A stretch of 61,845 bases of DNA, the filler included, from Basidioascus undulatus (lineage: Eukaryota), in NCBI GenBank assembly GCA_000826855.1. It is 5 parts of 5 records of this genome, joined end to end, with 100 filler letters (N's around TTAATTAATTAA, not from the genome) between each part and the next. Parts side by side here need not be neighbours in the genome. Positions count along the whole stretch, not along the records: positions 43,492 to 54,170 come from JTLS01001523.1; 4 more parts are not named here. The stretch is one strand, 5' to 3'. Below, piece after piece: positions 15,975-57,697 of the stretch. How positions within the stretch are numbered: the first letter of the stretch is position 1; each line of letters begins with the position of its first letter. The notes under the pieces were generated by a model. The model did no database searches. It saw only the letters and a list, made by a program, of their open reading frames with translations, and was not told the DNA's origin. Made by a program: the position numbers and the translations under genes.

Positions 15975-17554
15975 ATGGACACCGTCCTCGAAGTTGTCGA
16001 CACGTACGCGCTCGACTGGGCATGGGCAAAGCTCTTCCCTGGCGCGCCCGTACCCGCATGCACCCTCGCCGGCCTCGCAGACGCAGCGTCGTCTACCTGC
16101 CCAGGCTTCTCCTCCATCGCCAACGCCACCCTCTCCTCCGCAAAATCATTCCCTTATATCGACTGGGATAATCTGCACTCGCCGTGGGAGCACGCGAGTA
16201 TCTTTGCGCGAGACAACATCGTCCGACAATTTGCGAGCCTCACTCTCGTGACCTATGTTGGCATCCACTTCCTCTGTGCGTCTTTCCCTCTTAAAGGAAT
16301 CGGTCTTTCACAGATGGCAACTTATTTGTAACTCGATACCCGGGCAAATGCACAGACTTCGTCTGCGCTGCGGCGTCATACTACCTCGTCTTCGATCACG
16401 ACATGATGAAGCACCCGCGCTTCCTCAAGAACCAAGTCCGCCTCGAGATCGAATGCAGCCTGCGCGCGTTCATGCCGCTCACGTTGATGACCGTGCCCTG
16501 GTTCATCGGCGACGTCCGCGGCTACTCGCGCCTGTACGAGCACGTGGACGACTACGGCTGGGGATACTTCTGCTTCTCGATCGTCTGGTTCATCGTCTTC
16601 ACCGACTTCTGCATCTACTGGGTCCACCGCCTCGAGCACCGCCCCGAGGTGTACAAGTGGCTCCACAAGTGCGTTCTACCTGTCCTCCGTGTCGATGTGG
16701 TTTCAGCGGCTGACTGCGTGGACGACGACGCAGGCCTCACCACAAGTGGCTCAGTGCGTTCCTCCTTCGCGCTGCCGTGTTCTCTCAGCGACCTTGGACT
16801 GACAGTCTTGCTTCTCGTCTTGCAGTCCCTACCCCCTTCGCTTCGCACGCATTCCACCCGCTCGACGGCTACCTCCAATCCGTGCCGTACCACCTCTTCA
16901 TCTACCTCTTCCCGCTGCACAAGTACCTCTACCTCGGGCTTTTCGGTTTTGTCAACCTCTGGTCCATTCTCGCGAGTCCTCTTTTTACTTATTATCTGCT
17001 GCTGCTAGGTGGCGGACAGTTGTGGCGTTGGAGCACTCGCTGACCTGACCTGTCTGTCTGCCTCCTTCGCACTTTGCTCGGTTCCATAACAGATTCAGTG
17101 CGTTTTGTCCGTTCTTCGGCTTCATGCCTGCGCTCACCCATCTGACTCCGTTATTGCTCACAGCGACTCGGACATGATCTGTGGCCACCCCCTCGAGACG
17201 ATCGTCAATGGCCCGTCTCACCACACCTTGCACCACCTGTTCGTCCTCTTCTCATTTCCCCCTCCCTCATGTCCGTTTCAACATGCCTAACTTAACGTGT
17301 TGCCTCGTATCCAGATACTTTACCTGTCCGCCCTCTCCCCTCCCCCTCTATCCTCCTCCCCTCTCTCTCCCTCTCGCGCCGACTTAACGTTCTTAACTTG
17401 GATTTCTCCGGCAGGCAATTACGGTCAATATTTCACCTTTAACGATCGTGGATTCAAGTCGTACCGCCAGCCGGAGAAGAGCCTTGACCCGATGCTCGAG
17501 GTCAAGGCGCTGATGGCAGCGGAGCAGAAGGCGAAGGAGGCCAAGTCTCAATAG
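15975..17554 (+). CDS. ERG3: C-5 sterol desaturase (lathosterol oxidase)
   Basis: [22 protein letters not shown], His boxes HRLEH, HKPHH and HHTLHH, plus [17 protein letters not shown] and NYGQYFT. Confidence 0.96.
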
Positions 17555-17950: not shown

Positions 17951-19038
17951 TTATGCATCGTCGTCGAAGTCCGGGCGCCTGTATTCATGGCGATCGCGTT
18001 CCCATTCGTGTGCCCTCTCATCGTCGTGAGACCTCCCCCGCTCATCCCGCCCACTGCTGTGTCTCCTATGCGCACGCTCGTGCTGCTCATCCACGTCCTC
18101 CCCCCTATCCCGCTCCCGTGCGTAGGACCTCCTCTTCCGCTCCGGGGATCCCGAGCGCTCACGCCTGCTCCCGCCCTCGCTCCTCCTGCTTCTTCGGTGC
18201 CCCTCCCGAGCTACGTCCTCCTCGTCCAACCGCCTCCTTGGCGAGTGCGACCTCTTCCGCCGACCTCCGCTTCCCGTGTCCTCCCTCTCCCTCTTCGCCC
18301 TTTCCCGATCCGGCTTGTACGTCATCTTCTGCCCGCACTTCCCGCACAGCACGACCTTGACCAGTGCGCGCTTGCGCTCACCGCGCTCCTCGTACGCGAA
18401 CGGCGTCTCGTACGCGCGGAGGTCGGGCATGGGGGCCGAGGACGAGGATGAGGATAAGCGCGCCATGTCGTGGTGAGGACAGCGCAAGTTGGCGCACGTC
18501 GACTCGCCCGTGCCCGCGATAACCTCAGCCTCGGTTCGCCAGCGGAGAGCGATCTGGAATGGGAGTCGCGATGGGGGAAAAATCAGCGTTGAAGGATAAA
18601 GTAAGCACCGCAGCATGACATGGCACGCCCGGCCGCGCACCTGCCGAGTTTTCCAGTGCTTCAAGTCGATGATAGCGAACTCTCGGAATAGGCTCGCATA
18701 AAACTTTTCAGCGACTTCCTGCTCCCATCGAGCCGCCGCTGCCGCCTGTTCAGGCTCGTCCAGCTGGTTGCCATCCTCACGAATGAACCTGGCCCGCCCG
18801 CCCGCTGGCGTGAGTCACGCCGATGACTTCTTAGGATGTAAGAAGTGGGATTAACGCACTTGTGATGCCGCTTCAATACGTCCAGCTCCGTCGTCACTCC
18901 CTCCCCGCTATCCCTGCGCGGCGCGCGGTCGTAGATGTGCTGGGACGCGGCAACCTGGCGCTGGTGGCGCTCGTAGGCGGTTTCGCCGCGAAGCGTATTG
19001 CGCTGGTACGGCTTGAGACTGCTGCTGCTGCCGCTCAT
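17951..19038 (-). CDS. FRA10AC1: FRA10AC1 (folate-sensitive fragile site protein; spliceosome-associated) homolog
   Basis: TAYERH...TELDVLKRHHKFIRE...WEQEVAEKFYASLFREFAIIDLKHWK..IALRWRTEAEV..GTGESTCANLRC...FAYEERGERKRALVKVVLCGKC, then an R/S/E-rich tail. Confidence 0.92.
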
Positions 19039-28019: not shown

Positions 28020-28119
28020 NNNNNNNNNNNNNNNNNNNNNNNNNNNNNNNNNNNNNNNNNNNNTTAATTAATTAANNNNNNNNNNNNNNNNNNNNNNNNN
28101 NNNNNNNNNNNNNNNNNNN
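28020..28119. other. assembly gap with TTAATTAATTAA spacer
   Basis: N-run, TTAATTAATTAA, N-run, 100 nt in total. Identical to the other three spacers. Confidence 0.98.
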
Positions 28120-28242: not shown

Positions 28243-29319
28243 ATGCGTTCCCCTCTCTACCTCTCCGCCTTCGCCGCCCTCGTCGCCGTCTCCTTTGTCC
28301 AGGCTCAGCTCGCGGACGTCTGCGCGACTGTCGCCCTCGGCAGCATTGCGAATGTTGACCTCGCAGCAGGCAACTCCGCCCTCGTCCTCAACGCTGTCGC
28401 GGCGGCGCCCGATGGTCTTGTTGGGTTCCTCAACGGCCTCGCGAACGTCTGTCTCTGTGTCGACGCCCTGAACAGCGCCACCAACAACGTTGCTCAGGTC
28501 ACCGCCAGCGTGCAGCTTCGTGAGTCCGACTTCCACTTTCGATGGTCTCGGCAGCTCTTTCTGAGAGGTGGAGATAAGTCGGCGGCATGGGACTCCCCAT
28601 CACCGTTCAAGTCGACCTCAACGTTCCTGCCGACGCTGCCATCGACGCTGTGAGTCTCCCCGAACCGTGCAGAGCGCGAAGAGATGTACTTATTCTGCTA
28701 CGCTGTGTAGGTTCTCGGCGCGAACACCGAAGGCGGAGCCTGCCGTCGCAACCCCTCCCTTTCCCCCACCTCTCCCGACCAGTGCACTTGCGCGCAGCCC
28801 TCGACGATAGCCCGCAAGCGTCGTCTTGCGCAGACGCTCATGCTCACCGGCCCCAAGTCCGAGTGCCCCAACAAGAAGACCCGCTGCCCGATCGCCGGTA
28901 TGACCGACGACGAGGACGCTTTCGAGTGCCTTGACGTGAGTGGGGGTTTAATATTATCGTTTTCTCGAAACGTTCCTCTGACGCGACTACTCGTGTATCA
29001 GACTCGCGTCGAGCTCGAGTCTTGCGGTGGCTGCGCGAGCATCGGCAGCGGTCTCAACTGCATGGAGGTCGCCAAGCAGACAGAGGGCGTCGACACCTTT
29101 GGCATGCAGTGCATCAAGTCCAAGTCTGTCCCAAAGCCCCTCGTTGCTTTCCATCTCAACTAATCACGCATTCCCATCTGCAGGTGCACGGTCACCAAGT
29201 GCAAGGCCGGCTACCGCCTGTCCGTCCGCACCCAGTCTTGCGTTCCCTTCTGTACGTCGTTGGCTTGATTATTAACCTGAAAAAAAACATCTCTGATCAT
29301 TATGCACCTTCTCATAGAA
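28243..29319 (+). CDS. secreted cysteine-rich PriA/CPL1-like protein
   Basis: Signal peptide MRSPLYLSAFAALVAVSFVQA, an N-terminal CLCV motif, and C-terminal CPNKKTRCPI...FECLDTRVELESCGGC...GLNC...CIKSKCTVTKCKAGY, the PriA/CPL1 Cys pattern. Confidence 0.88.
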
Positions 29320-35706: not shown

Positions 35707-35806
35707 NNNNNNNNNNNNNNNNNNNNNNNNNNNNNNNNNNNNNNNNNNNNTTAATTAATTAANNNNNNNNNNNNNNNNNNNNNNNNNNNNNNNNNNNNNN
35801 NNNNNN
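35707..35806. other. assembly gap with TTAATTAATTAA spacer
   Basis: N-run, TTAATTAATTAA, N-run. Confidence 0.98.
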
Positions 35807-42077: not shown

Positions 42078-42429
42078 TTACCGCCCGCCTTCCGCCGGCG
42101 TGCCAATCATGGAGCTCACGCCATCGCGGCTAACCGGCTGCAAGCGGGTGAGCTCCTCGCGGCGGGCGAGCTGCGCGGCGTACTCGAGCTCGCGCTCCTT
42201 CTGCTCCTTCTTAAGCTCGCGGCGCGCGGCGTCGCGGATCACGCCTTGGTACATGGTCTGTTTCCCTCCCACACCATGGTCAGCTCCGAGGGCGGAATTG
42301 GGATTAAGGGGGAGCAGTAGGAGAGGCACGCACGTCCCGCTCGCGCTCCTGCTGGTAGTGCACGCCCCAGATCGTGATGAGCGCGAAGCCGAGGGACGCG
42401 CCGAACGTGAGCTTGGCTGCGCGGGACAT
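42078..42429 (-). CDS. PET117: cytochrome c oxidase assembly protein Pet117
   Basis: MSRAAKLTFGASLGFALITIWGVHYQQERERD|TMYQGVIRDAARRELK...QPVS, two exons. Confidence 0.92.
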
Positions 42430-42714
42430 GGCTGGGGTTGGTGGTGGTGGTGAAAAGGCAAGGATGTCAAGAAGCCTCGCGAAGCAAGAAGGCAGGCAGG
42501 CGGTATCTGGCGGCCGAGATTCGAGCCTGAAAGCAAGCAATTCGCGAATGGGCGTTTGGACCGAAAGCGCCGTCTGCGGCGGCCACTGCTAAGCTCATCG
42601 CCCTGCCCTCCTCCATCACCGCGCTCCTCCTCCTCTTCGCATCGTCCGTACTTACGCCCCGGCATACCGCTCTTTGAGACATCAAATTGACGTGTATATC
42701 TTGGACGACAGATA

Positions 42715-43318
42715 ATGGCTTCCCGCATCGCTGCCCGGCCCCTGCGCCTCACCGGTGCGTTGGCCTCGCAGGGGTGAGGGGGGAAGGCGCTGGCTGAGGA
42801 ACGGTCGCTGACGTCTGATCGTTGTTTCGCTGGGTGGGTGTGATTGTTGGATGTTGTATATTGGATTGGACGACACACAGCCGCTCTTGCGCGCCCGCAG
42901 CTCGCCGCTGCTGCCCCGCGCATCGCCGCCGCCGTCTCGTGCGTTGTCCTTGCCGTCTTCCTTACCCACACCTCCCTCACGCTCCTCCCCCTCTCCCTCT
43001 CCCCATACTCTCCCTTCCCCTCCGCCATTCCTCCAACCACCACCACCGGATCCCTCCAACAGTGCCCGCTCCTACTCGGACAAGCCCGCGCCGGCGGACA
43101 AGGCCGCGTCCATCCTCGACGCCCTCCCCGGCAACAGCCTCGTCTCCAAGACGGGCTCCGTCGTCCTTGGCACCGGCCTCGCCGCCGCCGCCGTCTCCAA
43201 CGAGCTCTACGTCTTCAACGAGGAGTCCGTCCTCCTCGCCGGCTTCATCGTCTTCTTCGGCTTCGTCGCCAAGATCATCCGCGAGCCGTACTCCAACTGG
43301 GCCAACGGCCAGATCGAG
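42715..43318 (+). CDS. ATP4: mitochondrial ATP synthase subunit b/4 (3' part lost in gap)
   Basis: Presequence MASRIAARPLRL..., then KAASILDALPGNSLVSKTG..LGTGLAAAAVSNELYVFNEESVLLAGF....AKIIREPYSNWANGQIE. Confidence 0.95.
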
Positions 43319-43391
43319 GTGCGTCCGCGGGGTGCCGGCTCTTTCGACGAACGGGCGTGAATGGCCCCCGGGGGGGGGGAGGGGGGGGGGG

Positions 43392-43491
43392 NNNNNNNNN
43401 NNNNNNNNNNNNNNNNNNNNNNNNNNNNNNNNNNNTTAATTAATTAANNNNNNNNNNNNNNNNNNNNNNNNNNNNNNNNNNNNNNNNNNNN
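43392..43491. other. assembly gap with TTAATTAATTAA spacer
   Basis: N-run, TTAATTAATTAA, N-run, following a poly-G tract. Confidence 0.98.
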
Positions 43492-43610
43492 TTGGAAGCG
43501 GGGAAACGGCATAGGGTAGCGCTCGTACGTCGGCGGGGAGGGGAGGGAGGCGCGGGCGCTGCTGGTCCCCCCCACGCCGAGGCCGAATCGTCCGCCCAGG
43601 GGTTGTCCAT
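43492..43610 (-). CDS. 5' end of an unknown gene running into the gap
   Basis: ATG at 43610 opens MDNPWADDSASAWGGPAAPAPPSPPRRRTS in GC-rich sequence up to the gap. Confidence 0.45.
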
Positions 43611-44059
43611 CCGCAACGACGAGGATGATCAGTTGAATGGGATTCGTGGAGATGCAGGGTGTACGTGGTCAAAGGGGCGAACTTGGGCAGCATGTGCGAT
43701 GAGGCTGTCGGCCGCCTGAGACTCGCGGATAAACCGGGGATTATAACCGGATGAAAGAGCGAGTGCCAAACAGCAGTCCGTGCAAAATGTACGAGGGTGT
43801 CCCATGTAGAGATCCGGGTAACCTCGTTTCTGGGTTGAAGCTGCGGCAGTGCACAGAAATTATTTATGCGTTCTAGACATGTATGTCAATATTGTATGAA
43901 TTTCCTAGAAGAGGTATTGCCTATTACGTCCCTTAGCGACTCTGTTACTTTGGCGAAAGACGCGGAGATCCTGAAAGGCTGGCTTGGCTTCATCTTCCGC
44001 AAGCCTGCTCCGAAGTGCAACTCACTTGCCATATCCACAACGTTCAGCTCAAATCCAGC

Positions 44060-44865
44060 ATGCCGAAACACCTTGAGCTTTCCACCGAGATCCTCTCCGA
44101 GATCCTCAAGCTCGCGTACGCCTCGGACCCTCACCCCACCAGCGCCGCCATCACCTCCCAACCGCGGCGCGGTCCGCTAGCAGCCTCCTCGTTTCGAAGC
44201 ATTTCAAGCTCATCTCTGAGCCCATCGTCTTCAAATCAATTCGCATCCACCATGCCAGGCACCGGAGATCGCTCCTCAGGCGCTGCACTCGCGACGCGGA
44301 CCTCGCACGCCACTGCACATCGATCGTCATCCGCAACGCAGTCTTGGGAGGACGAGAATCTCCCTCGCTTGCTACGTTGTCTCTCCAATGTCCGCTGCAT
44401 CGAGCTTGAGCTCCACGTCTATACCCCTTTAGACCACAATTTCCTTTTTGCAATGTGTGACATGCTCAAAACACTGAACCCGCTGGAGCTCACCTTCACC
44501 CTACACAACCAGTCATTCACTTGAACATGGAAGCGTCATACTCGTTGACCTGTCAAAGTGGGCTCCTCTATGCAAGCTGACTCTTTCTTGTCCGACTGCT
44601 CCTAAATCCTTCACTGTGCCTTCCAACTAGCGGAAGCCAACATCCACACCGTCTGCCTCTGCACTCCCCAATTTACGGAATGCAAGGGCTCTCACCTACC
44701 CACAAGTCAATGGGAATGTACGACTCGCTGCTCGATAATCCTTATATCTGCTCCCTTGAGGTCTCTAACCCTCAGCATGCGCATCCGTTCCTTGACCCTA
44801 ACAAGGGTCTCAGTGCTGCGTGGAGAGCATTGCAGCCTGGTGTGGAAATTATCGAGTTTGTTTGA
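44060..44865 (+). pseudogene. F-box-like gene, frameshifted
   Basis: MPKHLELSTEILSEILKLAY, then a frame change to SLLVSKHFKLISEPIVFKSIRI, then another to LPRLLRCLSNVRCIELEL. No plausible introns at the switch points. Confidence 0.65.
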
Positions 44866-45194
44866 GGACATCGCACTCCTGAGTGGAAGGCAGACCACGT
44901 CTCCCCTCCAATGCTCATGCTTGTGCGAATTTGTATAGGCGTATGTATTCCAGAAGTAGGAAAGGCCCCTTCAGTGAACATAAATCATGGGAACTGCAGA
45001 GGTTTTGGATCTAACCTAGTTAAAAAGAAACCTTTGTCCACATCTGGGTAAAATGCAAGCCTCGGGGGATTGCGGGCATGGAACCTGTCACCGCCTCGGT
45101 GTGCGGCCATGGTGGTTAGGCCTGCGTTCCTGGCGTTCTGCACTCCTGGATTCTCACCCACACTCCATCCTCTCATCGACGCTCAAAAGCTGAA

Positions 45195-46872
45195 ATGCCT
45201 CACCGCAATGAGCTCCCTTTCGAGCTCTGGATGAACATTGTGTCGCACCTCAATGAAGACGAAGACGGTCTCAGAGCCTGTCTCGCTGTTGCGCCTCTCA
45301 CCACCGCTCGCTTCGTGCACGACCTCGCATTCGCTGTCTTTTTCTCTTCGTTTAACCTGGAGGTCAGGGACCTCTAAATCTGGGCAAGGTTCCTTGGCCT
45401 TATCGGCAGGTTTTCCGGACGGCCCGAGTGCTGTGTCGTTCTGCGCGACGTCTCCCTCACCTTGGTCGCTCCGGAGTTTGGCTCGCATGCGGATTATCGC
45501 TGGGGTCCTGCGTTAGAACTGTTTATGAAGGGTACGTTTGGTTCTTCATTCTCACTTCCCTGTACGCTAGCAACAATGTGCTCATGCTCTTCCCTTTCAG
45601 CACTCGTTCACATTCTTTCCAAATCGCAATCCATGCGCAGCTTCTCATTCCAATGTCCCGAGACTTTCGATGCCTTCGTGAAGGTCGAGCATCTGCTCGA
45701 GATCCACCGTGTAGCCCCAAGTCTATCAGAAATTATGGTCTGGTAAGTCTTTCAGCAAAACCCTTCAGAGTCGAAGTTTACTGATTCACTATCAGAGTCG
45801 AATAGTAACCTCCGTTCTTTCGACGAGTCGGGATTGCTCGATCTCACCCCTTTCGCAGGTCTTTCGAAGCTGTCCCTTAGCCCCTGCTCGACCGGCCTTC
45901 CATGCCAACTTTTGCGGCTACCGCACGGCGTTGACATCTTGATGCTAGTTCGCATCAACTCGAAAGACATTCGGCGACCCATTGATCCAGTGATCGTCTC
46001 GCTGGACTTTTCGACGCTCTCGCAGTTTTCTCTCCACAAGACATCCATCTCGCCTCATGACATTGACCACCTTCTGCCGACAAAGCCACAGCGGCGCTCT
46101 CCTAGTACCAGCCGTCTCGCACTGGGGCTGGTGGGCGTCCGGTGCCCGACCTCCAGCACACCTAGAGGAATCTGTCGACCTGCAGTCCTTTGGCAAACCT
46201 CCGGTTCTTTCATTTTGGCCCTCACGAGGATGACTGCATCGCCCCGGGCGCCATGGAGGATATCGTCCGCGACTTTACAGCGTTTTGAGTTGCAATCCCA
46301 GCTCCAGCGCGTCACTTTCGGGGTCCATCACTATCTCGATGGCGCTTACCTCGATGTCGACGAGGCAGCAACCTTAGAATTCCTGAGCTCGAGGCGGCGC
46401 TTGCTACTCTCACCCGCCTGCGCATGCTTGACCTGTTCTGGCCCGAGCTCTCTTCGAGGAGCTTCTGCTTCCGGGAGAGCTTCTTGCAGTCAATCCAGAC
46501 CGTGGAAGTCCTCGTGATCACCGCCTTCCGTTCAATGGTGGGTAAGCCTTTCGAGGTACGCTGTCATCCAGGATACTTGCTTCATCAGAGAACTAACGAA
46601 ATGACCCCCCCCCCCCCGTCAGGCCTTTGCGATGGCAAAGGCTCTATCACACTTACCTTCGCTGGACACCTTTATCATCTAGTTCTCGGTGAATGTCCCG
46701 ACACATATCGAAACCTTCTTCGCTGAGATCTTGCTCAGGGGTCATCCGGGCTTGAAGCGCGTAAGGATTGATAATGACATGCACCACAGGAGGGACCTCG
46801 GGCAGGAAGACGGCGGGAAGGCCTCCTGTGGCGGGGTCCGGGTTGTTGAGGGAGAAGTTTCGGGCTACATGA
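45195..46872 (+). pseudogene. F-box-like/LRR-like gene with premature stop
   Basis: MPHRNELPFELWMNIVSHL...LRACLAV, TAA at 45375-45377, then fragmented LRR-like pieces (LDLTPFAGLSKLSLS; LQRVTFGVH; HPGLKRVRI). Confidence 0.65.
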
Positions 46873-48245
46873 GCTGGCTGATCATTTGTATATACTTGAC
46901 TTTGGTCAGTTGGGCCACGAGAATAGTTCAAGGCAGTGAAACACGTCGAGGTGCACCACAAGCAAAAGGATGGGTAATGGCTGGTCAGTGTTCAGTGGGG
47001 GACATTTGGATGGGTTTTAGAGGGCCAGGAGGCCGACAGGAACATGTGTCTCTGTGCCACCGATAAGCGCAACCTCGAGGGTTTGGCGGATCGAGGAGGA
47101 TTGGTTCGTTTCAAATTGTTGGGAAGTTAGGCATTCAGGAGACCCAACACAGGTCCGGGTTTCTCTGTTCCGTTTGCACGTCTTCGACGTCGTTTTCCAT
47201 GTCCGTAGCAGGGTCGAAACGCTCTAGCAAACCGATAAGGACACATCTTCATTGTTCACCACATTTTTATTTGGATATAAGGAAATTTCATAAAAAAAAC
47301 ACCATAGAAGTACAGGCACAACAGTAGGCAGCAACGGTCAGGCCCATCTTCCAAGCCAATCCTTCGTCAGGGTTCCTCGAAGAGTTCAAGTATCACAGCG
47401 ATGCTTTTCTGGGATAAATGGGGCCCTCGACGTCCGGCTTGACTTTCTGAACCACAAAGAGCAGCGCCATGCCCTGGCCGCAGCGTGCGTGCATCTGCAG
47501 AAGAGGTGGTATACGTCGGCACTTGATGGCAGATGCGATCTTTCCGGCGCTGCTACCTAGGAGACTCTATTCAGGAGGGTCCTTCATGGAGACCTAGCCA
47601 GGGCTGACGCCGAAGAGCGTGAAGCCCTTGTCCAGGTTTCAATGGCGTACTTGACAACAGACATCTCCAGTGCAGCTTGCCTGACCGGCCTGACCGGACA
47701 GCGTAGAGCCTCAAGGCTAAGACTGGCTGAACCTATGCTCTCGCTCACGTAGCCGTTTCAAAAACCTGCTCCTCAGGGTTGTCAGCAGCTTTGGTGACTA
47801 AGGTAGACGACGCGTTGAGCGACTTCAAGCCCCGATAGAAGCGGCAGGAAGGCGTTATTGGTGAAGGCGGCCCGACTGCGTTGACCCTAAAAAAATTGAA
47901 ATTTCACAAGGTTTCCTTTTTTACGAGGATGTTTTTCCTTGCCGAGTGGCGCCAATGTCACTCCAAGGAATTCATGCATTCAGGAACTGTCCAAAGATCG
48001 GCGCAATCTCGTCTTCGGGGCTTCAGTGGTATTAATAGAGAGACTGAACACTAAGAAAACCGCTGAGGTGGCTCTTATACGTACGGGCCGTGCACCCTTT
48101 TCAAGGCCGTGTACGGCGATGTGGCACTTCCCGGAGTCTGCGATGTGCGTCTTGTTGTCCACCCACCATCATCCCAGAGCAGAGCCTGCTACTCTCCGGC
48201 TCTCACCTACATTCAGCACAGCCAAAGCCTTTACCAACAGGGACC

Positions 48246-49086
48246 ATGTCGTCTCCGGCCTCTCCCGCCCCCGCGCTCCCCTCCGAGCTTCTCGCGTCCA
48301 TCCTGAAGGCCGCGACGCCACTCGCGGCGGACAGCAGCTCCTGCCTCTGCGCCTCGTCTGCCGCGACTTCGAGAAGGATATTACCTCTCTTATCTTTGGG
48401 AACCTGCACTTCGACAACGACCGGCGCGCCGCAGATGTTTGCTCGGCTCGCGCTCGCCCGTCCGGAGCTCTCAAGCAAACTCTCGAAGCTCGTCCTGCAC
48501 AACTTCGAACCTCTCCAGCCGCATGGTCCGCAGATCCTCGCAGTATGAAAAGGAGTTGGCGTCCTCGATCTCCGCTTCAACGACACGACCGACTGTACTG
48601 GATACGAGCGTTCGGAAGAAGGCTTCGCGATTTCACCCCCCGATGCCCTCGACCGCCTGTTCCGTGCGCGCCCGCTCCTTCGCCCGACGTCCGTCTCCAT
48701 CCATCGGCGGACTCCTCAACGTGCCGGCCCTGCTTACGGGATGGATTGGAGGGAACCTGCTCTAAATCATTCATGAAGTTTGGGGGGACGATCTCGAAGC
48801 GCTGCAGTGCGAGGAGACCTATCTTATACACGGTCTCGCCGATCATTCGGTTGCCGCTACGTATGGCTCCGTGATCATCGGCCCGCTATTCAAGACTGGT
48901 CAGAAGGTGGAATGCCTGCTCATTGCTCGAAATTTCCGCATTGCGTCACTCGAGTTCCTCGTGTACTCGCGTGGTCATCCGGAGAGAGGCCAGTTTTCGC
49001 TGAGCGCGAAGAACATCGAGTGCCTGCTTCGCGACGAGCCTGACGATGTGAAGGAGAGGGTGAGGGTCACTGTGGTCGATACTTGA
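48246..49086 (+). pseudogene. F-box-like gene, frameshifted
   Basis: MSSPASPAPALPSELLASILKAA, then a frame change to LLPLRLVCRDFEKDITSLIFGNLHF, then back to FARLALARPELSSKLSKLVLHNF, then a stop. Confidence 0.65.
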
Positions 49087-49414
49087 GAGTTGACTGGTTC
49101 TTCTTGTTCTACTGGCACGGGCACAGTGGGAGGGGCGGGGGAGAGAAAGGTTTGACTGTCGGGCAGCAGGCTTTGTTTGAAACAAATCGCACGTATTGTC
49201 CACAAAAAGCAATGACATATGCATGAATAAACGCGTTGTTGAAACTTTTGGGAAGGATTACCGCCAGTCTGGGTGAGGTAATTCGGAACGGTGGGCAGAC
49301 CTGGGCGAGTACAGGACCAGCCCACAGTCCATACTCTCCGAAGTTTTTTCCATGTGCAAAAATCTTGACGTCCACGTCCGCATGTATTGATGTGCCTCAT
49401 TGGCACCCTGCCGA

Positions 49415-51325
49415 TCAACCGCGCGCAGCCTCTTCCTCCTTCTTCTTCACCTCCTCCGAGACCTTCTGGGTCCACTATGCGCTCTCCTCAAGCGACAGAC
49501 CAGTGGTCGTCCCGCGCACGACCGCGTCGGGATCCTTCAGCGCGAATGGGTTCTGGTGCTTATCTTGGTTCAGCTCCGCCAGCGTGTGGTTTGTCTGGGG
49601 GGTTGGGGGTGTAATCAGCCTGTGCAGTCCGGGTATGAGGCTAATGACCGATACAACGTACAAATCGGTGGTTCGCCTCGTCTACCCGGACTTTGTATAG
49701 AATGTCAAGAATCTTGGCGTCCTCGGGCACACTCCAGTACTGTGCGCAGTCGTGTACGTGTGCCATGTCAGAACAAGCCTCGGAAAATGCTATAACGAGG
49801 ACAACAACATACCCGCTTGGCGATGTCCGGAGCCTGAAGGTTATCCCTGGAGAGATGGACATCCAAGAAAATTAGTGATAGACAGGTACGCCAAAGTACA
49901 CAAGAGCTAGAGGGTTAAAGGTTCCTATCACTCAGGCAGATATCCGTTCTCAAGTTCTTGGATGACGCGGGTGTAAGTGTAGATGGCTTCTTCTTCCACT
50001 GTGAGAAGGTACGACTTCTCAGTACAAGTTTTACAGTATAGCACAAAGGACCTACGGATACCGGTGAAACGTTGTCAAGTGCGGGGCGAGAGCAAGTACT
50101 GCCATGAGACTAGTCAGCTGAATATTGCGAAGGGCGTGTAGAAAGATGGCAGTCGACTGACAGCCACGAAGAATGCATTGTAGAAAACACCCTGGGCAGC
50201 GAGTAAGCATGCAGCGGAAAGATATACCATTTTTTCTTCGTTATGTTGATGAAGGTGCTGCAGAATGTCCGGCGACGAACAAGAGCATGAGAAACGTAAC
50301 CGCACAGAAGGGATAAGGACGTGGAACCATTGACAATGTAGGGAGTGGAAGAAAGACTGAACTCACAGCAAGTTCATCCGTTCGTTTTAGGCCTCTTCCT
50401 GTAGAGTGTGAAGCCACCCATTGTCCCGACGCTGCGGTGTCCGAAAGACTCAACTTACATAAGCTTGCTTGAAACCGTCACCGGCAGCGGCACACGCACC
50501 ATGCGACGAAAGCTATGGAGGTGACGGAGTGTCGCTGCGCACATACCAGCCATGCCGGCAATAGATCTGACGGCAAACGAAGTGAGGACGTGGGTTGGAC
50601 AAACAATGATCAGAGCCCAACGTCCTCGAGGAAGTGGACGCGGCGCAGCCAGTAGTCCGAGGATATATGGGCGTTCGGGTCAGATTTGTAGCTAACCGCC
50701 AGGCCACAATGTCAGGTTAAAGGAATTGAAGTGGCATTCCAGGGAGCTTATTCACCCTGTCAGACTTCGAACGCGGTCCGAAGGAACTTTACAAAAAGAG
50801 AAGTCACGCGATCCGACATGTCCCTCGGCTTGTGGTGCAGGACCATGGGACCCACTTTGAAAAGGACGAAAGACCCACGATGCCCATATTAGCTTATGTC
50901 AGGGATACCGATGAAGATGTACGTGTTCCATCCGCAAACTTGCCTTGACTTCTTCCGGGGTGCAGACTGGGTGCATGAGCATCCAGTATCCCGTTTTTTC
51001 GGGTGTGATTCCAAAGCGTCTTCGAACGAGCCGTGTTCTGGCAGCAAGTCAATCAGTCACAAATCCCGGTACTTTTGGGCTGTTGAAATTAATGGCCTGA
51101 AGCAGGCGCACCTTTGAAATGAGTATGCTCGCTGCCGTGGCCGACACGTTCGAGTGCCTCTACATTAGTAGGTTTGGCGGCTTTTTGTTGCTCGGATAGA
51201 TTCGAAGCGGTAAAGAAGGTCCGTTGTGCAGTACTGGCGGAAACAGGGCGTGAAGAGTAGGCGAACGATGCCTGTGGTAGCAATGCGGCTCGCAAGAGGG
51301 GGCGGGCTGGAATGGTCCGGAACAT
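49415..51325 (-). pseudogene. AOX: mitochondrial alternative oxidase pseudogene
   Basis: Presequence MFRTIPARPLLRAA, WMLMHPVCTPEE, WLRRVHFLE|SIAGMAGMCAATLRHLHSFR, RDNGWLHTLQEEA*NERMN, AQGVFYNAFF, YLLSPRT*QRF, EEEAIYTYT, APDIAK.YW, VRVDEANHRF, NHTLA...NPF. In-frame stops at 51089, 50387, 50075 and 49475. Confidence 0.93.
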
Positions 51326-52497
51326 GGCCACTGGTGTGTAAACGTTCAATGTAAGAGAGACGTTGCGAACGAAGAGACGTTTGGAGAACTCGACAGAGAC
51401 GCATTTCACATGCATCTTTATATCTTGGAGGGCTGCGTCGCTGCGATGGACGGAGGCAGATTCAGCTCAGAGCGGGGCAACAGTTGCGCTTCGTGCGTGC
51501 AGTGAAGCGACGGCCGAGTCGACGTTGAATGAAGCTCATGGGAGTCACTCCTCGCAGTCAGCGGGGAAACTGCTGCAACACATGTACATTTATACTCGGC
51601 TCTACTTCACCTGAGAGGGCTTGCTTCCCGTCATGACACCGTCACAATAAGTTCGTATGAAGTCGAATAGGGAAGCACGCAGAACGGCCTCCTGCTGCCC
51701 TTCTCGATGGCTTGGAAGAGACCACCGTCCCTCCACTGCTTGCTCCATCTTTCTCCATGCAGCGGTTCCGAAAATCAGACAGACCTGCGGTCCTGGTACG
51801 CAAACATCCGATTGTCTGCACCATCCATTTGTGGAGCTTTGGACGTCCGTGTAGGCCTGCTCGCGGCCGTGTTCTGGAAAACTGCTCAGTTGCGGTCGGT
51901 CGTCCAGCATGTCCCCGTTACGTACTTTCGTAGGTTAAACCACTACGCACTGCAATATTCTTCGTGGGCTTGCATGCGGCAATGGCGCTGTAAAGGCACC
52001 ACCCATAGTCAAGGGAAAGACCTGGCCGTCCTGCAGCCGCATTGCACAGCCTAGGAAACCCCGCGCAGACTCAGGGACTCCCGTAGACATTCCGCCGTGG
52101 CCTTGCCCAAATCTCATACAAGACCCACTGGTGTACCGATGTTGAAAAAATCAGTTGGCTTCATCAATGTTCACGATGGTGCCCGTGCGGCCCGCCTCCC
52201 TCCAGGCCAGCTTTCGCGTTCACTCGCATTCAGTCGACCGTTGGACTGCTAGCATTAGCTCCCGCGTCACTCCTGCACGCAATATGACGCCAGAAAGGAT
52301 ACCGCCGACCTTCAAGTCCGGTCCGGACCGTCTTGGAGCCCCAAGCTCCACCCGTCCTGCTCCGCGTCACACCTCCTTTGATGCGCAGGTTCTCCTCCCT
52401 GTCCCAGTCCAAGCAGCCCTTCCCACACAGCATCTCGCCACTTCTTGCCACTCATTCAGCCAAGAATCTATAATGCTCCTCCTCCTCCCGTCCCGTG

Positions 52498-54068
52498 TCA
52501 TCCCCCCAGCCCCTCAACGAGCACGACCCGATCCTTCTCCTCCCCGCTCTCCGTGCGCTTCCACGTCTCGATCCGCTCCCCGAACTGCGAAATGTCGAAC
52601 ACGCGGAAGCGTTTGTGGAACCTGTTCATTCCGTTCCGTCGAATTCGAGAGTTAGAAGCAAGGGGAGGAGAGGGTGGGAGGGAGAGGACGTGCCCGAGTT
52701 GGGAGTACCCCGAGAAGGACGACCCGCCGTCGAAGCAGATCCAGATCCCGTCGACGCGCTGTTTCATGCAGCGATGCTTGTCAGTTTTAAAGGAACAGCA
52801 ATGCAGGGATTGCGGAACCCACCTTGCAGTTCTAAATTCCCGAAAGCGCCGCACGCCGCGCAGTAACGAGCAAGTCAACACCCTTCTACTAGAAAGCCAG
52901 CGAGCGAGAGCTGGAAAATACGCACGTCCGTGATCTGCACCCATCGCACCCCCACATCCACCAAATCAGCGCCCTCCTCCTCTCCATTCCCCCATCTAAC
53001 ATCTAACCAACTCAACTCACATGGCAGTGCCCTACGCCCCCGCCACCCTCTTATCAGCCTCCTCTTGTCCCCATTCCCTCCCCCTTTTCCTGCCCACTAA
53101 CCAACTCACCGTGCGCAACGATCCTGACCTCCGGCACTGCCTCTCCCTCCCCCTGCTCGGTCCACTCCTCCCGCGCGCTCCGCAGCGCATCCCAGAACCC
53201 GCTGTTCTTCTTCGGCGCGCCGTCTAGGTCCAACGCGCTTCCCCAGCCCTCGAGTGGGAGGCCGGAGGAGTTCTTGTCCGCAGGAGAGTCTGTTTCCGTT
53301 CCATACATCCTTCCACAGTCAGGTTCCGTGAAGCTGGAGAAAGAAAGATAGAAAAGTAAAGACGTACCGTAGTACCTGTCCCGTCCACCCTCCCATCAGC
53401 CGCCCCACCCTCGCCCCTTCAACCAAAGAAAGAAGCCCACGCACTCCCGCATCGGAATATGCCCCCACAGCATCGCATTCGGCTTCGCCAGGACCTTCTT
53501 CCCCTCCCTCTCCTTCTCCTGCCTCTCCTCTTCCCTTCCCCGCCCACGCACGCGCGCCCACGGGCTCTTCAGGTCCTCCGCCCCGTCGGGCGTGAACGGC
53601 CGCTCGATGGCGTGCGTCCGCGCGGACTGCTCGAGGAACCAGGCTGCTTGACTCTGTTGGTGGGGAGGGGGCGGGGACGGGCGGGGGTGAGGCGAGGAAG
53701 AGGAAAGAAGGGGAGAGAGGAGAGAAGGAGAAAAGGTAGGGTGGAGGGGAAGGAGGGCAAAGGGAGGGTCGCACAGGTTTTATCCAATCATACTCCCTCT
53801 CTGACCCCCACGACAGCCACTGCCTCGGCGCGTAGTCGTGCGTGTCGATAAAGTACAGCGTCAAAAGCGGCGTTTTGGACCTGTCGTTCCATCTCAGATG
53901 CAGAAGGGAAGGGAAGCGGGAAAGGAAGACGCACGCATCCGGCGACCGCACCCTAACGACGTAGTTCCCCGCCCCGTCCACCTCGGCGGGCCCGACTTCG
54001 GCAAGGCTGTACGGCAAAGCGGAGAGGAGCTTCATCTGCTCGCGGCGGATCATGCTGCGCGCCCACAC
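52498..54068 (-). CDS. calcineurin-like metallophosphoesterase, Dcr2/Sia1-like (5' part lost in gap)
   Basis: LPYSL...GPAEVDGAGNYVVRV...LTLYFIDTH...YDWIKP.Q..WF...KPNAMLWGHIPM.EY...VAHGH...VDGIWICFDGGSSFSGY...RFRVFDISQFGERIETWKRTE. Confidence 0.88.
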
Positions 54069-54170
54069 CCCCGCCCAGTCAGTTTCCTTCTCCTCATACC
54101 AGCGAGGGGATGGGAGGGAGAGGGGAAGGGCGGCGAGTGGAGGGAGAGCAGAGGGGAGAGGAGAGAGGAG

Positions 54171-54270
54171 NNNNNNNNNNNNNNNNNNNNNNNNNNNNNN
54201 NNNNNNNNNNNNNNTTAATTAATTAANNNNNNNNNNNNNNNNNNNNNNNNNNNNNNNNNNNNNNNNNNNN
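54171..54270. other. assembly gap with TTAATTAATTAA spacer
   Basis: N-run, TTAATTAATTAA, N-run, following a polypurine tract. Confidence 0.98.
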
Positions 54271-56363: not shown

Positions 56364-56957
56364 TCGAGACTAATTTTCATGGTCTTTGTAGTCTGTTGTG
56401 TGCCCTGTCGACTGGGTTGACTGGAGCACGTCGAAGCTGCCACGGTGAAGGCATTCGCTGCGTCGTCTTGATCAGTCATTACCCGCATCGGACTATCTTT
56501 CTTTCTCATGTCAGAGTATCGTCTCGCTGAAGCTCTCCTTTAAATGGCTTCCCGTAGCATTTTTCGACACAAGCTTTCGACACAAGATTCCAATCACAGA
56601 TGACCAGGCTGTAGACGCAGAGCTTCGCCAGCGTGAAAGACTTACAGTGTTGGATTGTGTGCTGCAAGGCGGGTGTACCTCGGGAAATTAACTATTTGAT
56701 AATTCCATCTGGATCGTTCCTTCCAGTGTAACCGTGCAAATTCGAGATGTTATCCTGCAAATCCAAAAAGCGGTTGAAAGCGGGCTGCGCATCACGGACG
56801 CTTCGCGGAAATCCGACGGACAGACTCGCGTGCCCGGCGCCATGAGTCGCCGCGCCGCGTCCGAGCCTGCCTTTGTCCTGACCGCCATCTACAAACCTTT
56901 CCATCGCCACTTTTCACCACTGACCCACATTCATCTTCAATAAATCGATCGAATATC

Positions 56958-57697
56958 ATGGCCGCGCCATCCGGAATCACCAAAGAGCTCATCGACATCT
57001 CCGGCAGCGGCGCCGACAACTTCGTTAAAGTCCCCTCCCCCTCCTCCTCCTCGTCCCATCTCTCCTCCTAGTCCCTATCCCTGTTCCCTACCATCATCTT
57101 CTCCGACACTCTTCCCACCTTCCCAGCTCTACTATACCGCCTACGACACCGCACGCCCGACGCTGTCCACCTTCTACCGCGCGCAATCCGCGATCGTGTG
57201 GAACGGCAACCCGCTCTCGGGCGCCGTCGCGTTCGGGCAGTTCATCGACCAGCTGCCCGACACGAAGCACGAGGTGCAGTCGTATGATTGCCATCCTATA
57301 GTCGGTGCGTCGCTGCCCTTTCTCATCTCGGCCATCTTCCCTCTCCGTGCTGACTCGGTACCTCCCGCGACGGGAACGCTCAGACTCTCCGCCAAACCCG
57401 CACCGTCCCCCCTCCATCCTCCTCACCGTCTCCGGGCTCGTCGCGCACGGCCAACCCGCGATCGACGCATTCCCCTCAGGGACGCCCGCAGGCTACACGA
57501 AGCCGCACCCGGAATTGTTGCCGCGCGTCTTCAGCCAGACGTTCGTGCTGCAACCGGAGGTCGGGCCGGTGGGCGAGACGAGTTACTTTGTGGCCGGTGA
57601 GTTGAACTCTCTCGCAAGTTAGAGAGGAGCTGGTGAGGCGCGGCGGCTGATACGAGAATGGCATCGGATAGGCGATACGATGCGCTTCGTTGGATAG
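56958..57697 (+). CDS. NXT1: NTF2-related export protein Nxt1
   Basis: ADNFVK|LYYTAYD..RPTLSTFY...IVWNGNP...LPDTKHEVQSYDCHPI...ILLTVSGLVAHG...PRVFSQTFVL...YFVA.DTMRFVG*. Confidence 0.9.

Follow-up and report, generated by a model that had tools for sequence, protein, structure and literature searches.

The alternative oxidase (AOX) gene at 51325 to 49415 on the minus strand of the window (the whole 61,845-nucleotide stretch of Basidioascus undulatus DNA analysed here) is very probably an unprocessed duplicated pseudogene, in a genome that also carries a second, apparently working AOX. We read it as an ordinary loss of a duplicate and not as loss of the respiratory bypass; loss of the pathway is very unlikely.

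The gene model comprises 12 exons and 11 introns, with 1106 nt of exon from the ATG to the stop codon. It lies in a contig of 10.7 kb (43492-54170); the window consists of five contigs joined together, so neighbours outside this interval are unreliable as synteny. With 120 fungal AOX proteins as tblastn queries, the AOX segments came out complete and in order; each of the three minus frames over 49400-51333 matched the Pfam AOX domain PF01786 (E = 6e-10, 3e-12 and 0.002). Homology runs along the AOX domain, and no open reading frame covers the whole enzyme. The introns are 57-109 nt long (n = 11); eight have GT-AG ends, one has GC-AG ends, and two keep an AG acceptor with a dead donor (GG in intron 4 and AT in intron 9). 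Contigs from three sequencing runs were compared with the locus: two are DNA runs (X1 and X2), and the third (X3) is labelled 'DNA?' and was treated as RNA because its joints fall on splice sites and 9 of 30 bins are empty. Nine of the 11 predicted introns were spliced exactly in X3 contigs, while both dead-donor introns (4 and 9) were retained or cryptically spliced, as predicted.

Nine lesions break the reading frame: three nonsense codons, four frameshifts and two dead splice donors. The exact bases of the frameshifts are approximate, being inferred from homologues about 40-50% identical. Exon 1 (51112-51325, minus strand, as for all exons and introns below) begins with the ATG and encodes an N-terminus rich in Arg, Ala and Ser, probably a mitochondrial presequence; it is joined to exon 2 in X3 (joint 51037/51112). 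Exon 2 (50944-51037) has a -1 frameshift near an A run at 50999-50994 and ends in the GC donor, which is used in RNA (X3 joint 50854/50944, GC-AG ends) and lies upstream of the frameshifted start (50854-50847) of exon 3 (50756-50854). Another -1 frameshift at the end of exon 3 leads to TGA 50762-50760 in the AOX frame. These three frameshifts, over 50999-50756, cancel, probably by chance; about 50 shifted codons are stop-free, and the AOX frame is back at exon 4 (50626-50691). The end of exon 4 falls inside the codon for the first Glu ligand (the equivalent of E123; trypanosome numbering is used throughout), which is thereby split by intron 4 (50567-50625) with its donor GG for GT. Exon 4 is also about 14 residues short of Agaricomycete AOX homologues, as a lineage trait or through an in-frame deletion.

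Exon 5 (50500-50566; X3 joint 50431/50500) is followed by exon 6 (50367-50431), in which nonsense TAA 50389-50387 stands at the E160 equivalent, E162 is intact and H165 is replaced by Asn (AAC, 50374-50372). Exon 7 (50162-50257) has a frameshift near 50220-50216 and a cryptic GT donor at 50227. Exon 8 (50056-50098) contains nonsense TGA 50077-50075, at a site with Cys in 28 of 39 homologues, and Gln for H206 (50074-50072). The E213 and Y220 equivalents are intact in exon 9 (49929-49998), which is followed by intron 9 (49847-49928) with its donor AT for GT. Exon 10 (49813-49846; X3 joint 49739/49813) precedes exon 11 (49662-49739), where the second ExxH motif (E266 and H269 equivalents) is intact, and exon 12 (49415-49594) contains nonsense TAG 49477-49475. 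The transcribed 3' flank covers 49254-49414, X3 record 9 extending to 49254.

Both replaced His residues, H165 and H206, are His in 39/39 homologues, whereas Y198 is intact along with the Glu, His and Tyr residues named above. The six di-iron site residues of trypanosome AOX listed in the available part of PMC9246349 include H165, and the part of PMC4682143 available describes the two AOX His as stabilising the site via hydrogen bonds, not by direct iron binding. Of the four Glu and two His that PF01786 members have at the di-iron site, the pseudogene has Asn for H165 and an E123 codon spanning dead intron 4. Among the 41 columns in which at least 95% of the 39 homologues agree, the pseudogene departs at 9 (homologue median 0, maximum 2); since these very homologues served to define the columns, the control is partly circular. 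The original prediction, made from the window alone, had described an AOX gene with all segments in order on the minus strand, and had placed the TAA, the TGA and the Asn, at an iron-centre His, exactly where we found them. It had also counted at least four in-frame stops, of which three prove to be true nonsense codons; another two TGAs arise secondarily, TGA 50762-50760 from the frameshift ending exon 3 and TGA 49930-49928 from the TG of a divided Trp codon running into the donor mutated to AT. The two stops that it named and the His-to-Asn change stand, with the four frameshifts and two dead donors to be added.

A second AOX record was found in X1, X2 and X3 at 80% likeness, aligned over 49472-49597 with 24 differences in 126 nt and no gaps. 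Identity between the two loci is 81% in the last exon, and the second-locus records of all three runs share the 12 listed differences from the pseudogene. At the position of pseudogene intron 11, the second locus has an intron in X1 (joint 49597/49656), and X3 reads across it. The view of the second locus takes in the last part of exon 11 and a portion of exon 12, with the first ExxH motif and the N-terminal half outside it; the loose ends of this locus translate by hand reading to MVDLLYAVRA, RADEANHRFT and AAKIAKEVKE, and the second ExxH motif is intact. Such a partial view would allow for a second locus broken elsewhere, so that both AOX copies are dead. We consider this very improbable, because the visible codons are all sense and G/C-ending (28/28, vs 19/28 G/C-ending in the pseudogene) and Glu, the residue of the Agaricomycete set, stands at a column with Asp in the pseudogene. 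The length of the second-locus contig in X3 (record 10, spliced, 1372 nt) also fits a full coding sequence: 991 nt lie upstream of the aligned last-exon piece, leaving room for the 926 exon nt found upstream of exon 12 in the pseudogene. Its depth is 2401 vs 2-9 for the pseudogene, a several-hundred-fold gap that is suggestive only, contig depth being a poor expression measure. GC-ending codons number 84/85 in an ATP synthase b exon of the window vs 138/213 in the pseudogene core. From the 3' part read, the second AOX gene appears to be intact. Searches for its full sequence returned 0/28 candidates with exon 12 against longer proteins, 0/594 confirmed stretches in a metagenome scan with exon 12, no matches in a metagenome scan with a short motif, and 0/202 proteins with three lineage-specific peptide motifs.

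The pseudogene itself is still transcribed. Intron 4 is kept in X3 record 12, which carries 50500-50691 unbroken, and intron 9 stays in X3 record 11, with a second X3 contig cutting it at a cryptic site close by. This cryptic cut (49924-49847, minus) has a donor four bases from the dead donor, in a contig of depth about 7, and the sole equivalent cut preserving the AG acceptor of intron 9 is a GA-AG intron. A GA-AG intron at 49924 is probably used in RNA, as seen in a single contig where an artefact is possible; its AG|GAA context resembles GA donors described in the available part of PMC7072748. The open reading frame in the RNA seen is 162 codons long, ended by TGA 50612-50610 in retained intron 4, and would be 194 codons if all introns were removed. 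The computed 162-residue peptide ends before all iron-site residues but one Glu codon at the E123 position.

Continued transcription, nine correctly spliced introns and a frame open through three compensating frameshifts could suggest that the RNA, or a mitochondrially targeted 162-residue peptide, is kept as a regulator tuning the working AOX. If true, this would be an AOX duplicate put to new use in a basidiomycete lineage that is under-sampled. We regard such a role as very improbable, since the depth is very low, identity to the other copy of about 81% at best would be poor for small-RNA targeting, a frameshift sum of zero has a one-in-three chance, and the 50 shifted codons scramble conserved sequence.

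The second locus has the depth of a single-copy sequence in both DNA runs: 17.9 in X1 (record 3, 4963 bp) vs 18.7 for the window contig, and 45.1 in X2 (record 6, 62,587 bp) vs 39.7. Its origin in a contaminant, another haplotype or the subgenome of a hybrid is highly improbable, because its depth tracks the window contig in two runs of different depth, X1 and X2 each sum to about 34-35 million letters of contig, and the rest of the 5.5 kb compared shows no listed variant letters. The 62.6-kb contig moreover aligned with the window at 80% over the last exon only, with no flank or intron match, so the second AOX is another locus and not an allele of the pseudogene.

A paralogue is present in the same genome in all three runs (X1 record 3, X2 record 6 and X3 record 10). 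The pseudogene keeps its 11 introns, nine of them spliced in X3, and shares the last intron position with the second copy, as expected of a duplicated pseudogene; a retrocopy origin was rejected on the same grounds. The definition of a unitary pseudogene, with no other copy in the genome, does not apply. The original prediction had raised this case, an only copy whose death deprived the fungus of its respiratory bypass; the resulting absence of cyanide-resistant respiration would have been notable. A gene complete in outline yet dead would suit it, and AOX is absent from some fungi according to the available part of PMC10744626, but the second locus at matching depth in both DNA runs and its abundant spliced contig leave it very little chance. 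The same prediction had named an intact, expressed paralogue as what would overturn pathway loss; a second locus and a spliced contig were found, with full intactness inferred from the 3' part.

Contigs of X1 and X2 were aligned to 47800-53300 of the window (5.5 kb). All 240 sampled words were present in both runs, and one contig in each run covered the interval with no other letters and no gaps. The runs are possibly the source of the window and possibly from one strain, so that this agreement speaks for the material sequenced rather than for the species as a whole. As the contigs are identical over the lesions, assembly error is ruled out and sequencing error was rejected as their cause; the frame-breaking lesions are not sequence errors, and the call of a pseudogene holds. 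An 811-codon open reading frame in the window, with 19 Glu, 29 Gln, 5 Trp and 10 Cys codons, runs on without an internal stop and so speaks against a changed code; an altered genetic code was rejected on this basis and because the lesions are mixed (TAA, TGA, TAG, indels and donors). No other letter was found at any stop or other lesion in X3 contigs, including TAG 49477-49475, spanned by X3 record 9 with no other letter as a check on A-to-I editing under one condition, though contigs drop rare variants, so minority editing could go unseen. Rescue by RNA editing was rejected, since the stops are unchanged in RNA contigs and editing is unable to repair nine lesions. That the gene is functional, whether because of sequencing error, another code, RNA editing or recoding, is scarcely conceivable: the early frameshifts do cancel, with the frame back at exon 4, and the locus is transcribed and spliced, but the lesions are of mixed kinds, the DNA contigs agree, the RNA contigs show the same stops, the long frame reads ordinary codons without a stop, and invariant His residues are changed.

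Three rough estimates of the age of inactivation, each resting on 2-9 events, suggest about 0.05-0.09 substitutions per site since then. Three nonsense codons, with 3.8% of single changes stop-making, give about 0.07; changes at 2 of 44 splice dinucleotide bases give about 0.045; and 9 changes at 96 nonsynonymous sites of conserved columns give at most about 0.09. The earlier description of the copy as recently inactivated is therefore no more than loosely right. The two AOX copies differ by 19% in the best-matching exon and at 12 of 30 nt in the loose-end part of exon 11 (hand count), and no other exon of the pseudogene aligned to the second copy at 80%. This divergence and lack of further alignment suggest that the duplication was probably older than the inactivation, two genes having coexisted before one died. 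Inactivation by RIP was rejected, the indices of the pseudogene being near the window average with at most a slight shift (TpA/ApT 0.83 vs 0.64; (CA+TG)/(AC+GT) 1.07 vs 1.21; CpG observed/expected 0.95 vs 0.97). Transversions are needed to explain the His and Glu lesions, and likewise 7 of the 12 differences listed against the second copy. In a tree of 40 rows (the pseudogene, 9 Agaricomycete proteins and 30 of 56 further AOX matches of at least 230 aa), the pseudogene grouped with basidiomycete AOXs (98/95), outside the Agaricomycete-plus-Tulasnella clade and on a long unresolved branch; its highest identity to the tree proteins was 48%. An Atlas query for lineage returned the ATP synthase b family only and no lineage.

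Several observations concern the surroundings of the pseudogene. An expressed gene upstream contains three consecutive micro-exons of 11, 9 and 9 nt (53031-53021, 52934-52926 and 52831-52823, minus), which an X3 joint at 52760/53109 with 26 letters between fits; judged by motifs only, this gene resembles a DCR2-type metallophosphoesterase. Several open reading frames at 44061-46900 and 48248-48950 (plus) appear frameshifted and, judged by a motif and with a negative Pfam result, have F-box-like starts; one frameshifted F-box-like frame is covered by an unspliced X3 contig (48138-48781). Searches of Pfam and PDB with the pseudogene neighbours gave no identification. The pseudogene may be one of several decaying genes clustered here. 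Elsewhere in the window, Pfam matches at 16295-17005, 17954-18814, 28711-29160, 42081-43214 and 56944-57597 were to fatty acid hydroxylase (weak), Fra10Ac1, CPL1-like (weak), PET117 and Mtr2/NTF2, and PET117 and ATP synthase b are arranged head to head. The four 100-nt linkers at 28020-28119, 35707-35806, 43392-43491 and 54171-54270 are identical, each made of 44 N, a 12-nt all-frame-stop spacer and 44 N, and genes are cut at them, for example ATP synthase b (about 42720-43319).

On the preferred reading of a duplicated pseudogene, the genome once held two intron-bearing AOX genes, one of which lost selection and then gathered the nine lesions observed. The promoter and most splice sites of this copy are still working and give the low-level spliced RNA represented by the contigs; with intron 4 kept, this RNA could encode at most the 162-residue peptide, and its scarcity is probably due to nonsense-mediated decay. 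The second AOX gene, whose locus and transcript were observed and whose full intactness and activity are presumed, would be the source of cyanide-resistant respiration. No report of a basidiomycete AOX pseudogene was found in the literature searched, mostly papers outside subscription. The present locus adds a basidiomycete case in which a second AOX was gained and then lost, and its RNA shows how the dead copy is still spliced; it also cautions against calling pathway loss from a single window.

According to the available part of PMC10744626, multiplicity of aox is rare in fungi, with cases in Candida, Neurospora and Aspergillaceae and a recognisable A. cristatus pseudogene; the available part of PMC10219456 reports aoxB alleles with frameshifts and nonsense mutations, as well as a pseudogene in A. 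tubingensis. As far as these parts go, the duplicate cases are ascomycetes, with aoxB pseudogenes or mutant alleles in A. tubingensis, A. niger and A. cristatus. The Basidioascus undulatus pseudogene resembles Aspergillus aoxB in being an intron-bearing second AOX broken by frameshifts and nonsense codons while the other copy (aoxA in Aspergillus) persists. It differs from the ascomycete alleles described there in its nine lesions vs one to three, and in the residual splicing with dead donors shown here; in addition, aspergilli lose the acquired paralogue, whereas the dead copy in Basidioascus undulatus may be the ancestral or the derived one. Compared with PF01786 and trypanosome AOX (PDB 3VV9), the pseudogene DNA still shows every segment and four of the six di-iron residues (E162, E213, E266 and H269). 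It departs from them in having Asn for H165, an E123 codon interrupted by an unspliceable intron and no open frame linking the parts. Coexisting AOX pairs cited in the available part of PMC10744626 include aod-1/aod-3 of Neurospora crassa and the tandem pair of Candida albicans. We found two AOX proteins, 73% identical, in Coprinopsis cinerea okayama7, so such pairs exist in basidiomycetes as well. Like the Neurospora, Candida and Coprinopsis pairs, Basidioascus undulatus has two diverged AOX genes in one fungal genome; unlike them, its pair has one clearly dead member.
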